Source: an uncultured Actinomycetes bacterium (GTDB lineage: Bacteria > Actinomycetota > Actinomycetes > S36-B12 > CAIYMF01). Taken from it: 32,000 bases of DNA. The DNA is taken from NCBI GenBank assembly GCA_963843975.1, contig CAWJMG010000003.1, positions 720,001-752,000 on the forward strand. The letters run 5' to 3'. Below are positions 12,229 through 31,001 of this stretch, in pieces. The notes beneath the pieces were generated by a model. The model was given only the letters and a program-made list of their open reading frames with translations. It was not told the origin of the DNA and ran no database searches. Both the position numbers and the translations under genes were made by a program. Position 1 is the stretch's first letter. Every line of letters starts with the position of its first letter.

Positions 12229-12234
12229 CCCCCC

Positions 12235-12284
12235 GATTTGGTAGTGCTACAGCGTCACCCGTGGCGCCTTAGCACTACCAAATC
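12235..12284. repeat. 50-nt imperfect palindrome, copy 1
   Basis: GATTTGGTAGTGCTAcaGCGTCACccGTGGCGCctTAGCACTACCAAATC. It forms 15 perfect outer pairs, a 2x2 mismatch, then 7 inner pairs. It starts 6 nt after the kamA TGA and encodes the last ~12 codons and the stop of the DUF559 ORF on the other strand. Confidence 0.9.
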
Positions 12285-13218
12285 GTGCTTCGGCGGCTCT
12301 ACGGATCTCCTCGAACTGGGCCTCGATCCGCCTCGCTTCGGGTCGCAGGAGGTGGACTGGAATCCGGAGCACCTGGTGACCCAGCGCCGTTGCCGCAGCG
12401 TCCTTGGCCAGGTCGCGGGCGCGGCGGACAGGGTCGTCATGGAACACACCGTCCACCTCGACGAGGAGCAGCGTCCCGTCGGGGAGATCGACGACGACGT
12501 CGTAAGGCCTGGGGCCGTCCGCAGTGCGCACGACGTGCTGCCGCCTGAACGACGTGAGCCCTGCACGGCGGAGCAGGCGCGTCACATCGACCTCGGACAG
12601 CGAGTCCGCCCCGCCCGCAGCGTGTACGAGCGAATCGCGGATGGCATCGACATGACGCACCTTGGTGAGCCGCTCCAGACACTCAAGCATCGCCAGGGGT
12701 GTGGAGAGCCGCTGCTGCACGACCGCGATCACGAGCCCTGACGCCGAGCGGGGTGATCGCTGCCGCGACGCGGCATTGACCGCCGCCCGTTCGACAGTCG
12801 TGCAGCGCACTCCTCCGTGGATCGTGGCATCCGCCCCGTCGAGGTGGCGACTGCGATGGAACACCACGCCACGCATGGGACTGATCACGACGCCGTGGGG
12901 CGCGAGCACATGAGTCATCCCGGACTCCCAACCTCGAAGGCCGCCCAGAGACAGGACGGTACGGTCGTCGAGCAGCGCTCGCGGCCCGGCGTGCAGCAGC
13001 GCCGAACGCTGCAGCTGCCCCTCCGTGAGCACCCCGGTCATCAGACCGATGACGTTCGGCGTGATTGCTTGCCACCGCTGGGCGCGCAGCTGGCTCCGGA
13101 CGTGGTTTTTGGTGACGCCCAAGGCGGCCAGCTGGTCGCGATGCACGATGCCCGCCTGCTGCGAGGCGAGCTCGCGCAGACCGGGAATGTAGGCCAGTGG
13201 CTGAGTGCGACCTGTCAT
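12247..13218 (-). CDS. DUF559 / Vsr-like (PD-(D/E)xK) endonuclease-domain protein with N-terminal AbiEi-like HTH region
   Basis: The C-terminal block SLSEVDVTRLLRRAGLTSFRRQHVV...YDVVVDLPDGTLLLVEVDGVFHDD...RDLAKDAAATALGHQVLRIP matches the DUF559 pattern. The N-terminal LASQQAGIVHRDQLAALGVTKNHVRSQLRAQRWQAITPNV matches the AbiEi_4-like pattern. I count roughly 1 in 5 codons ending in A/T (aca, ggt, act, cca, att, aaa, caa...) against well under 1 in 10 in kamA. The ATG at 13218 is preferred. The track ORF extends to GTG 13290. Confidence 0.75.
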   Translation of the reverse strand: MTGRTQPLAYIPGLRELASQQAGIVHRDQLAALGVTKNHVRSQLRAQRWQAITPNVIGLMTGVLTEGQLQRSALLHAGPRALLDDRTVLSLGGLRGWESGMTHVLAPHGVVISPMRGVVFHRSRHLDGADATIHGGVRCTTVERAAVNAASRQRSPRSASGLVIAVVQQRLSTPLAMLECLERLTKVRHVDAIRDSLVHAAGGADSLSEVDVTRLLRRAGLTSFRRQHVVRTADGPRPYDVVVDLPDGTLLLVEVDGVFHDDPVRRARDLAKDAAATALGHQVLRIPVHLLRPEARRIEAQFEEIRRAAEARFGSAKAPRVTL

Positions 13219-13309
13219 GGGCCGACCATCGGCGTACGACACGCGGGCGCGCGCCGGTGCACAGAGCCGAATGGGGATGACGCGCCGCACGCCCGACCTG
13301 TGCCTGACG

Positions 13310-13359
13310 GATTTGGTAGTGCTAACGCGCTACCCGTGACGCTCTACCACTACCAAATC
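13310..13359. repeat. 50-nt imperfect palindrome, copy 2
   Basis: GATTTGGTAGTGCTAacGCGCTACccGTGACGCtcTACCACTACCAAATC. It matches copy 1 at 42/50 positions in the same register (hand alignment). It ends 10 nt before the stop of the GGDEF gene and lies 20 nt upstream of the longest DUF559 ORF start. Confidence 0.9.
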
Positions 13360-13369
13360 GAGGCGAGGG

Positions 13370-14695
13370 TCAGAGGCTGACTACTCGGTTCTTGCCGTGG
13401 CCCTTGGCCTCGTACATGGCCTGGTCGGCGCGGGCGATGACCTGCTCCACGTGCTCACCGGTGCGCGCGAGCGTGACGCCGATGCTGGTGGTGAGAGGGA
13501 CGGTCGTGCCGCCCACGACGACCGGCTCCGACGTCGCCTGCCGCACCCGCTCGGCCAGGTGCTCAGCCTCGCCGGGGTCGGCGACGTTCACGAGCAGCGC
13601 GACGATCTCGTCACCGCCGAAGCGCGCGACGAGGTCGGCACCCCGAAGCGCACCACCGACACGCGCCGCCACGATGCGCAGCACCTCGTCTCCGACCGCA
13701 TGGCCGAACTCGTCGTTGGTCGCTTTGAAGTCGTCGATGTCGCAGAACAGGACCGCCGCACGCCCGCCCTGGGCCGGGATGCGGCGCGGCTCCAGTCGCC
13801 TCAGCAGAGCGGCCCCTGTCAGCAGCCCGGTCAGAGCGTCGTGCTCGGCGGCGTGCACGAGCTGGTGCTCGATCTCCACCTGCTGGTCAGCGACGCGGAA
13901 CGACGTGAGCACGCCCTGGTGCTGCCCGTCACCGTCGATGAACACCTTCGCGTTCGACTCGACCCAGTGGTACCGACCGTCCTTGGCCAGCACCCTCCGA
14001 CGCGTGATCACCGACCGGCCAGCCAGCAGCGCCTCACGAGTCGTACCGAGGTCGGCGGCGTCGTCCGGGTGCAGGAAGCTGCGGCCCTCGTGGCCCATCC
14101 ACTCCTCGGGAGACCATCCGAGCGCATGGGTGATGGACGGCGACACCCAGCGGACGATGCCGTCCTTGATGTGGAACACGACGTCGGACGCGTTCTCCGC
14201 CAGCAGGCGGTATCGCTCCTCCGACTCGGCGAGCTCCGCCCTCGCGCTGCGCAGCGCGTCGATGGCACTGACCTGGTCGCTGATGTCTGCGAGCGTGACC
14301 ACCACAGCGCCGTCGTCCTCGTCGGCCGGCGCGGCCAGTGGCACGGCGTTCACCCATACCCACGTGACGTCTCCGTCGTGCGCGCGGATGCCCATCCTCA
14401 CACCGAGCACCGGTTCGCCGGTGGCGAGCGCGACCGTCCCGGGGTGGGTCTCGCCGGTGAACTCGGTGCCGTCCTCGTGGATGGTGCGCCGGCCGGCGTC
14501 CATCGGGGTCAGACCGGTGATCTGATCGGCGGTGTACCCGAGGATCCGCCACGCCGCGGGATTGCTCCGTACGATTCGGCCGTCCGCAGCCAGGACGACG
14601 ATGCCCTGGGGAAGCGCCTCGAACGCGCGCTGGCTGAGGCCGCAGGACATCGCCCCCGGCGGCTGACCCGCCGCGGTGCGTCCACCGGCAACCAT
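13370..14695 (-). CDS. PAS-PAS-GGDEF diguanylate cyclase
   Basis: 441 aa with two PAS-like modules followed by a GGDEF domain (DALTGL...LFCDIDDFKATND..GH..GD...RGADLVARFGGDEIVALL). The active-site variant is GGDEI. An RxxD I-site (RGAD) sits 5 residues upstream. Confidence 0.9.
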   Translation of the reverse strand: MVAGGRTAAGQPPGAMSCGLSQRAFEALPQGIVVLAADGRIVRSNPAAWRILGYTADQITGLTPMDAGRRTIHEDGTEFTGETHPGTVALATGEPVLGVRMGIRAHDGDVTWVWVNAVPLAAPADEDDGAVVVTLADISDQVSAIDALRSARAELAESEERYRLLAENASDVVFHIKDGIVRWVSPSITHALGWSPEEWMGHEGRSFLHPDDAADLGTTREALLAGRSVITRRRVLAKDGRYHWVESNAKVFIDGDGQHQGVLTSFRVADQQVEIEHQLVHAAEHDALTGLLTGAALLRRLEPRRIPAQGGRAAVLFCDIDDFKATNDEFGHAVGDEVLRIVAARVGGALRGADLVARFGGDEIVALLVNVADPGEAEHLAERVRQATSEPVVVGGTTVPLTTSIGVTLARTGEHVEQVIARADQAMYEAKGHGKNRVVSL

Positions 14696-30575: not shown

Positions 30576-30619
30576 CTGGATGCGTGGGAGGCACGTGGAC
30601 GTGCCTCCCACGCATCCAG
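30576..30619. repeat. perfect 20-bp inverted repeat with 4-nt spacer (terminator or operator)
   Basis: CTGGATGCGTGGGAGGCACG-tgga-CGTGCCTCCCACGCATCCAG. It lies 23 nt after the FKBP stop and 37 nt upstream of the pafB ATG. No U-tract on either strand. Confidence 0.85.
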
Positions 30620-30641: not shown

Positions 30642-31001
30642 TCAGCTGACGCCGAGCAGGTCGATCACGAACACGAGCGTCTTGCCCGACAGGCGGTGGC
30701 CGCCGCCCGCGGGGCCGTAGGCCAGGTGCGGCGGGCAGACGAGCTGGCGGCGTCCGCCGACCTTCATACCCGGGATGCCCTCCTGCCAGCCCGCGATGAG
30801 GCGGTTCAGCGGGAAGTTGACGGACTGGCCGCGGCCCCAGCTGGAGTCGAACTCCTCGAGGGTGTCGAACTCGACGCCGAGGTAGTGCACGTCGACGGTC
30901 GCACCGGGCGTGGCCTCGGCGCCGTCACCCACGACGATGTCGGTGATGACGAGCTCGGTCGGGGCCTCGTCGCCCACGAACTCGATCTCGGGCTTGTCCA
31001 T
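30642..31001 (-). CDS. FKBP-type peptidyl-prolyl cis-trans isomerase (cytoplasmic)
   Basis: 119 aa: VHYLGVEFDTLEEFDSSWGRGQSVNFPLNRLIAGWQEGIPGMKVGGRRQLVCPPHLAYG. GAGGAG SD present. Confidence 0.9.
   Translation of the reverse strand: MDKPEIEFVGDEAPTELVITDIVVGDGAEATPGATVDVHYLGVEFDTLEEFDSSWGRGQSVNFPLNRLIAGWQEGIPGMKVGGRRQLVCPPHLAYGPAGGGHRLSGKTLVFVIDLLGVS

Follow-up and report, generated by a model that had tools for sequence, protein, structure and literature searches.

Layout of the kamA junction

The DNA analyzed here is a stretch of 32,000 nucleotides (nt) from an uncultured Actinomycetes bacterium (contig CAWJMG010000003.1, positions 720,001 to 752,000), hereafter the window. It holds a single-gene cassette in which a gene for a predicted nuclease is flanked on both sides by a palindrome of 50 nt (P1 and P2; the repeat family is called P). 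The neighbors are a KamA-family radical S-adenosylmethionine gene (kamA) and a PAS-GGDEF gene, and a spacer of 1141 bp separates their stop codons (12228 and 13370, respectively). Read from kamA, the spacer consists of 6 nt, P1, 1025 nt, P2, and 10 nt. The P1-gene-P2 unit measures 1125 bp, with P1 and P2 spaced by 1075 nt (Table 1). The first-pass annotation of this DNA had described the layout of 6/50/1025/50/10 nt, a match of the two copies at 42 of 50 positions, and a gene whose stop codon and last ~12 codons lie inside P1. The coordinates and counts were confirmed on all three points.

Table 1 Positions of the cassette features in the window and of related units in Longivirga aurantiaca
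Feature	Position	Strand	Remarks
P1, 50-nt palindrome	12235..12284	.	3' of the cassette gene, holds its stop codon and last ~12 codons; begins 6 nt past the kamA stop codon
P2, 50-nt palindrome	13310..13359	.	91 nt 5' of the cassette ATG; 10 nt from the GGDEF stop codon
Cassette gene, 323 aa	12247..13218	-	Starts with ATG; AbiEi-like N-terminal part and Vsr/DUF559 (EDxHD-like) nuclease domain
AbiEi-type winged-helix and AbiEi C-terminal-like domain, aa 13-175	12694..13182	-	PADLOC, Foldseek
Vsr/DUF559 nuclease domain, ~aa 204-310	12289..12609	-	Pfam, profile match to 3hrl/3r3p
Leader of 91 nt, P2 to ATG	13219..13309	-	Assigned by position; promoter presumed
DUF222-HNH units, L. aurantiaca	L015 4202-6002; L019 1070-2891; also L003, L011, L008		

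The arm pattern GATTTGGTAGTG-N-CACTACCAAATC is found at two sites in the 32 kb, which are P1 and P2, and at none in 100 shuffles; no further P copies lie in the window. The outer ends read GATTTGG...CCAAATC, and the arm of this family contains GGTAGTG, that is, a GTAG motif. Both copies fold as hairpins below their shuffled controls, which agrees with their earlier description as long imperfect palindromes. For P1, the predicted energy is -36.7 kcal/mol (z -7.5) with 22 of 25 positions paired; for P2, the two strands give -26.3 and -32.9 kcal/mol (z -2.8 and -5.6). On the strand of the cassette gene, P1 is followed by GGGGGG. No intrinsic terminator, defined as a GC-rich hairpin with a T-run, was found between 12100 and 13500. 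As the T-tail is missing, P1 and P2 are not canonical intrinsic terminators. A search against Rfam at E <= 1 returned no known RNA family and no intron at this locus, and no sigma-70 consensus site was found in the leader region. A leader is also present in other cassettes, in which the tblastn match starts 22-164 nt from the upstream palindrome.

P1 and P2 are identical at 42 of 50 positions when compared directly in the same register, and P1 matches the reverse complement of P2 slightly better, at 44 of 50. Hence, their relative orientation in the window is ambiguous. The outer arms had also been read as terminal inverted repeats of the unit. This reading is not supported in relatives, whose copies are direct.

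The cassette protein

The only credible open reading frame (ORF) of the unit encodes a protein that is identical over 323 aa to database protein P0001. An AlphaFold model built from an alignment of 32 homologs reached a predicted local distance difference test score (pLDDT) of 92.8. Its first ~200 residues superpose on the AbiEi antitoxin 6y8q (Foldseek E 1.8e-5, 199 aligned columns) and on Rv2827c (1zel). PADLOC models of AbiEi match residues 13-175 at E 2e-14, and 7 of the 16 distant homologs have a Pfam AbiEi_4 match. AbiEi proteins bind inverted repeats, and AbiEi domains are autorepressors that act on them (PMC7319586).

For the last ~100 residues, the structural matches are DUF559 protein 3hrl (template-modeling score TMt 0.70) and the catalytic domain of I-Bth0305I (3r3p, TMt 0.78), each with a Foldseek probability of 1.00. 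The family profile also matches 3hrl in the PDB at E 7e-4, as well as 3r3p. Five residues (D240, D256, G257, H260, and D269) are invariant in the 32 homologs, and E254, K272, and D273 are conserved in at least 90% of them. These ExDGxxH...D...KD signature residues correspond to the Vsr/EDxHD catalytic motif of I-Bth0305I, an EDxHD homing endonuclease with a Vsr-type nuclease (PMC3239194). The proposal that the ORF joins an AbiEi-like part to a DUF559/Vsr nuclease is therefore upheld by fold and profile matches. The Pfam score for DUF559 (PF04480) is marginal, at 20.3 bits just below the curated cut-off of 20.6, and the DUF559/Vsr assignment is based on the fold and the profile. Among the 16 distant homologs, 7 match DUF559 at E <= 0.01.

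Pfam, NCBIfam, PADLOC, and the fold search assigned nothing other than AbiEi and DUF559/Vsr to the protein. In particular, they found no Y1 (HUH) tyrosine transposase related to the TnpA of IS200/IS605. An AbiEii (DUF1814) nucleotidyltransferase partner is found neither beside the window gene nor in any cassette locus fetched. A reading of the cassette as a defense system was rejected, as PADLOC returned the AbiEi domain only, without a system partner. The protein family comprises 3421 clusters at 50% identity (E <= 1e-3).

Palindromes flank the gene throughout the protein family

The palindrome bracket characterizes the protein family as a whole. The order palindrome, gene, palindrome is found in about 30 homologous loci with adequate flanks on both sides (28-67% protein identity). 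A first sampling by a metagenome scan with the family alignment gave 38 loci (fetched loci are cited here by L numbers), and each locus with adequate two-sided flanks carried two palindrome copies at the gene borders. The same bracket is seen in L074, L075, L081, and L082. The flanking palindromes measure 46-54 nt, the two copies lie 1001-1221 nt apart, and their sequence differs between lineages: P co-diverges with the cassette protein. In most loci with asymmetric centers, the two copies are direct; the loops GCAGAG/GTAGAG, for example, occur in both flanking copies of L002, L081, and L082. The 3-kb flanks of the cassette loci contain no further P copies, and a few loci have doublets. In 11 additional truncated loci, the palindrome is found on the side that is present, and it is imperfect or degenerate in a few of them.

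The bracket spans several orders (Sporichthyales, Propionibacteriales, and Micrococcales). It is found in the cultured strains Nocardioides sp. zg-579 (complete genome CP053660.1), Microbacterium sp. 2MCAF23, and Knoellia sp. CPCC 206435, and the same structure was recovered in the independent read assembly L001 and in dozens of metagenomes. The homolog in Longivirga aurantiaca is 61% identical to the window protein and lies at the same AsnC/kamA junction between two palindromes of ~52 nt that are 1073 nt apart. Their 12-nt outer arms are those of the window, and their inner stem is different. A generic terminator family unlinked to the gene was considered and is ruled out from the gene's side, as the bracket recurs in ~30 loci.

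Exceptions are few. L042 has a downstream palindrome (~965-975) that is reduced to its first 10 nt. In L040, the flanks are shorter than 100 nt and nothing was seen. The loci L066-L068 lack repeats; their homologs are distant (28-32% identity) and partial, with only the N-terminal part. In L048 (1-32, 932-963), the 3' end of the gene and the left arm of the palindrome are deleted, and in L063 (~705-760), the right arm is degenerate. L042, L048, and L063 are decaying cassettes.

A tandem arrangement is found in L060 (71-1300), where a palindrome doublet, a gene, and a palindrome are followed by a second leader and gene start that are ~80% identical to the first. The locus has a direct repeat of 157 nt made up of P, leader, and first codons. 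Many homologs are located on read-assembly contigs of 1.0-1.3 kb, and contigs L043, L048, and L055 begin or end inside a palindrome. This suggests that the palindromes break assemblies around the cassette genes.

The cassette is a variable module at a conserved junction

At the kamA junction, the cassette is a foreign-looking, hypervariable module that is present in some relatives and absent in others. Its share of G or C at third codon positions (GC3) is 0.79, against 0.965 for kamA, 0.976 for AsnC, and 0.935 for the acyl-CoA dehydrogenase. These values bear out the deviant codon usage reported earlier (about one in five codons ending in A or T, against well under one in ten in kamA). Compared with L. 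aurantiaca, a close relative of the window genome, the window proteins are 96% (kamA), 98.8% (AsnC), and 96.6% (acyl-CoA dehydrogenase) identical, and the dehydrogenase upstream of kamA (Pfam KDD_N) reaches 93%, against 61% for the cassette protein. At the DNA level, identity is 92-98% through kamA up to its stop codon and then 50-78% over P-gene-P.

Four-fold synonymous sites of the cassette gene are 39% identical between the two genomes, which is close to the 33% expected at saturation, whereas the neighbors keep 64-74%. Faster evolution of the cassette protein in place is thus no explanation of the divergence and was ruled out, as these sites are saturated in the cassette and not in its neighbors. 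Across six genomes that carry a cassette at the kamA/AsnC site, kamA is 86-96% and the cassette protein 44-61% identical, and the palindromes are different variants. Other family members are found in unrelated genomic contexts.

When junctions were sampled by kamA rather than by the cassette, several states were found. In L069/L070, the kamA/AsnC junction is empty and contains one palindrome of 52 nt. In L069 (5452-5503; kamA 86% identical), it has one bulge and belongs to the size class of P; it is either a target before insertion or the footprint of a cassette loss. The junction of L072/L073 is also empty, with a 9-bp hairpin only. L071 has unrelated small genes at this place, and in L074, the cassette is present. 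Relatives that carry the gene at the kamA/AsnC site carry it with the repeats, and none carries it without them. The idea of the first-pass annotation that a selfish unit had been inserted here gained from this comparison, as some relatives have empty sites, one of them with a single 52-nt palindrome, and as saturated synonymous sites stand beside flanking proteins that are 96-99% identical.

The PAS-GGDEF gene (13370-14695, minus strand) adjoins P2. It is absent in L. aurantiaca, L081, and L082, where the upstream palindrome directly follows AsnC, and its GC3 of 0.885 is higher than in the cassette and lower than in the core genes. The gene has the look of a lineage-specific insertion next to the palindrome.

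Dispersed solo copies of the palindrome

The flanking P belongs to a dispersed repeat family in the two genomes checked, L. aurantiaca and the metagenomic genome of L075. An exact-pattern scan for the arm pattern, with one genome per species, returned 28 stretches. At least 23 of them are from L. aurantiaca, and the rest are from actinobacterial metagenome-assembled genomes (MAGs) and one Chloroflexia MAG. All copies found in this way have 50 nt, except for the Chloroflexia copy with 46 nt. The 50-mer family is thus present elsewhere. This and the other computational tests that the first-pass annotation had named as possible refutations, namely linkage to the gene, relatives with the gene and no repeats, and codon usage, left its idea unrefuted. 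L. aurantiaca has at least 28 copies whose arms and inner stem are as in the copies flanking its gene. In L075, three solo palindromes of 50 nt within 21 kb carry the outer arm of the P of that cassette. A Nanopelagicales MAG (L022) has a solo copy that resembles the inner-stem variant of the window. Solo copies mostly lie 1-17 nt past a stop codon, often between convergent genes.

Once oriented, the P copies share a conserved asymmetric loop, GCAGAG. Their outer 12 nt are nearly invariant, and the inner stem is variable yet complementary. Across 32 copies, 89.8% of the stem cells pair, and both sides have changed in 10 of the 22 pairs. The covariation score of the stem was reached by none of 500 shuffles. 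The structure of P is under selection.

Three single palindromes were recorded in addition. The Chloroflexia copy (L005 5618-5663, MAG CAWHCC010000004.1) is a perfect 46-nt palindrome with the same 12-nt arms GATTTGGTAGTG...CACTACCAAATC; it could be due to chance, mis-binning, or horizontal transfer. In Nocardioides sp. zg-579, a solo palindrome of 54 nt (L078 2187-2240, GGGGGTCGTGTGCC...) is located 7.7 kb from the cassette of that genome. Its variant differs from that of its own cassette and resembles the flanking palindromes of metagenome locus L053, so several P families may coexist in one genome. The window has a third long palindrome at 30576-30619, which is intergenic, has 44 nt with a perfect 21-bp stem (CTGGATGCGTGGGAGGCACGTG...), and lies 22 nt past the stop codon of ORF 30642..31001 (minus strand). 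The outer arm, CTGGATGC, is similar to that of the solo palindrome family of L075. The palindrome may represent a second P family of the window genome with its cognate gene elsewhere.

The same palindrome bounds DUF222-HNH genes

In L. aurantiaca, P also brackets multi-copy DUF222-HNH genes of the REP13E12 type, a family named in PMC10589994. At least 4-5 copies have this arrangement. Two of them share 1857 nt that are 91% identical, and the homology ends 7-27 nt from the palindromes. The two P copies of these units are inverted relative to each other. An HNH gene stands beside a P copy in three further loci; the window contains no HNH gene. Hence, P does not belong to DUF559 genes alone. It is either a site used by both nuclease cassettes or the property of one of them or of a third party.

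Interpretation and alternatives

P as the proposed cognate site of the nuclease: We read P as the cognate site of the AbiEi-helix-turn-helix (HTH)/Vsr nuclease and the cassette as a selfish module for which solo P sites at gene ends are the places of entry, loss, and replacement. We put the probability of this reading, which includes P2 as a probable operator and P1 as a probable transcript end, at roughly 0.55. Binding, cutting, and mobilization are inferred from the association of the protein with P. In such a mechanism, the protein would contact the conserved 12-nt outer arms of P through its AbiEi-type domains and recognize the inner stem by its structure. It would nick or cut P as a duplex, hairpin, or cruciform, and this nuclease activity would promote recombination at P. 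The expected outcomes would be entry of the cassette into a solo P at junctions of convergent genes, its loss with a solo P left behind, and its exchange for divergent alleles. P2, on the upstream side, probably also acts as an autoregulatory operator, and P1, on the downstream side, as the end of the transcript.

Several points weigh against this interpretation. What links the protein to P is an association in sequence. As P and the gene are physically linked, their co-divergence by itself is no proof of function. Most solo copies have no DUF559 gene nearby, and only the L002/L023 site has a DUF559 homolog close to it. The association of palindrome and DUF559 gene put forward in the first-pass annotation holds from the side of the gene, with ~30 loci and lineage-specific palindromes. 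From the side of the palindrome, most copies lie behind unrelated genes. The bracketing of DUF222-HNH genes by the same P family belongs here as well: P could be part of another element or a common landing site. In addition, the same AsnC/kamA site is kept in at least eight related genomes, which fits long residence as well as mobility. Plasmids gave no matches to the family, and there was one weak match in phage records and one weak match among viral contigs.

The cassette also lacks the signature of attachment-site (att)-like integration. If a circle with P_y entered a chromosomal P_x at the center of the palindrome, the best pairing partner for the left half of the upstream copy should be the right half of the downstream copy. 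This reciprocal-chimera signature is absent from the 23 loci compared, with 871 within-copy against 862 cross-copy pairs. In the window, cross-copy pairing gave 44 and within-copy pairing 40, a difference that was not used as evidence. Insertion may proceed by site-specific exchange, by homing-type repair, or by another route.

A wider version of the proposal is tentative. Actinobacterial AbiEi-HTH/Vsr nucleases might each recognize their own palindrome of ~50 nt, spread or maintain solo copies at gene ends that are similar to repetitive extragenic palindromic (REP) sequences, and drive the gain, loss, and replacement of their own cassette. They would then be an independent analog of REPINs and their REP-associated tyrosine transposases (RAYTs), and they might share a palindrome with DUF222-HNH elements of the REP13E12 type.

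P as a possible landing site: P could instead be a REP-like palindrome or terminator family that is mobilized by the DUF222-HNH element or by another enzyme. A solo P would then serve small nuclease genes as a preferred place for landing or recombination, and the DUF559 protein would not act on P. Elements that target hairpins or REPs are known, such as class C group II introns and IS110/IS1111. The DUF222-HNH copies of Longivirga, with a 1857-nt unit ending so close to P, and the many solo copies behind unrelated genes agree with this explanation. It does not account for a bracket in ~30 loci of the DUF559 family, each locus having a P variant of its own that follows the protein, or for 3-kb flanks that are free of further P copies. 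A passive landing site predicts neither the constant size of 46-54 nt nor a similar leader length across orders. We consider it unlikely.

P as a possible part of a resident gene: The gene could also be resident in the host and vertically inherited, as a regulator or as a domesticated gene comparable to a RAYT, with P2 as operator and P1 as terminator. It would not be mobile at present, and its divergence would reflect fast evolution or an old balanced polymorphism. This would suit the shared AsnC/kamA site in at least eight related genomes and the absence from plasmids and near absence from phages, as reported for RAYTs (PMC5581495). Autorepression by AbiEi domains through inverted repeats (PMC7319586) fits it, too. 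The saturated synonymous sites beside neighbors at 64-74%, the sharp break of identity at the cassette edges, and the atypical GC3 all speak against residence. So do the presence, absence, or other contents of the same site in relatives, the occurrence of the same cassette type in unrelated genomic contexts, and the existence of tandem and decaying copies. Taken together, we regard a resident gene as quite improbable.

That P1 and P2 are ordinary terminators paired by chance, or that they are an artefact of assembly, has a negligible probability: P1 and P2 do lie at places typical of terminators, at the 3' ends of convergent or tandem genes, but none of 100 shuffles matched, the palindromes have no T-tail, and the same structure recurs in read assembly L001, in the complete genome CP053660.1, and in dozens of metagenomes.

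Significance

Actinobacteria encode very many DUF559/AbiEi-fusion proteins, to which no function has been assigned. A conserved DNA partner that is matched to each lineage provides a directly testable hypothesis on their target. If the nucleases are an independent counterpart of the REPIN-RAYT system, a large part of the unassigned DUF559 family would obtain a function. If the nuclease mobilizes or maintains the palindromes, REP-like populations would have arisen at least twice with unrelated enzymes, and the origin of palindromic repeats in high-GC Gram-positives would be explained. A palindrome common to DUF559 and DUF222-HNH cassettes hints at how REP13E12-type elements, long known and never explained, might move. 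Dozens of natural pairs of a protein and a 50-nt site with diverged specificities could become sequence- or structure-specific DNA tools. The palindromes would also explain the recurrent assembly breaks around the cassette genes.

Comparison with known systems

AbiE toxin-antitoxin: The N-terminal 175 residues of the cassette protein match the AbiEi models and the AbiEi and Rv2827c structures. In contrast to the AbiE type IV toxin-antitoxin system, the AbiEi part has no AbiEii partner and is fused to a nuclease.

Integron cassettes: As in chromosomal integron arrays and clusters of attC sites lacking integrases (CALINs), single promoter-poor ORFs lie between imperfect palindromes of similar size. 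The outer parts of these palindromes are conserved and the centers variable. Direct copies, tandem arrays (L060), and ORFs that run into the palindrome are further common features. Unlike attC sites, the ends of P have no R/L core sites (R''/R' GTTRRRY), and no integrase was found in the window or in the flanks that were fetched. All cassettes carry a nuclease of one and the same family as cargo, and the same palindrome is scattered as solo copies over the chromosome.

Homing endonucleases: The EDxHD enzyme I-Bth0305I has a similar Vsr-like catalytic domain (3r3p, TM 0.78) with the ExDGxxH...D motif (PMC3239194). An N-terminal HTH-type DNA-binding module fused to the nuclease and the character of a small selfish module with presence/absence polymorphism are also shared with EDxHD and free-standing homing endonucleases. 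The cassette gene differs in being free-standing and intergenic, outside an intron or intein, and in having an AbiEi-like N-terminus instead of a NUMOD. It stands between two complete palindromes and does not split a unique target, and its putative target is a multi-copy repeat. The first-pass annotation knew of no mobile element with such a nuclease. This needs a qualification, as the Vsr-type EDxHD enzyme I-Bth0305I is already known in mobile elements (PMC3239194).

REP13E12-type elements: The DUF559 cassettes and the DUF222-HNH elements alike are compact units in the chromosomes of Actinobacteria that are repeated, have one nuclease gene, and are of unknown mobility, and in Longivirga, they are bounded by the very same P family. 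The DUF222-HNH units differ in their HNH nuclease, their length of ~1.8 kb, their multiple copies at 87-92% protein identity, and the inverted orientation of their P copies.

REP/RAYT systems: The link between RAYTs and REPs was drawn from a flanked gene, dispersal of the same repeat, and lineage-specific pairing (PMC3116915, PMC5581495). As in the REP/RAYT systems of Proteobacteria, a usually low-copy gene is flanked on both sides by a short palindromic repeat, and the same repeat family is dispersed in extragenic space, here in L. aurantiaca and L075. The repeat families are lineage-specific and track the gene, which is rare on plasmids (PMC5581495, PMC3116915). The GTAG motif in the arm of this P family (GGTAGTG) is a further similarity. 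In contrast to these systems, the enzyme is an AbiEi-HTH protein with a Vsr/PD-(D/E)xK nuclease, whereas RAYTs are Y1 HUH transposases. Where readable, the flanking copies are direct, whereas those of RAYTs are inverted. The repeat is a near-perfect palindrome of 46-54 nt and mostly solo, whereas the RAYT system has REPIN doublets. The cassette gene is hypervariable and incongruent with its neighbors, whereas RAYTs behave like vertically inherited housekeeping genes, and the host phylum is Actinomycetota.

Full-text literature searches returned no account of palindromic repeats that bracket DUF559 or Vsr-like genes and, among the matches listed, no RAYT/REPIN work that mentions Actinobacteria. 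The REP/RAYT-like arrangement with a different nuclease class suggested in the first-pass annotation agrees with what was found, that is, one flanked gene together with dispersed repeats. Hence, the cassette looks like an undescribed counterpart of the REP/RAYT repeat systems that is built on a different enzyme.

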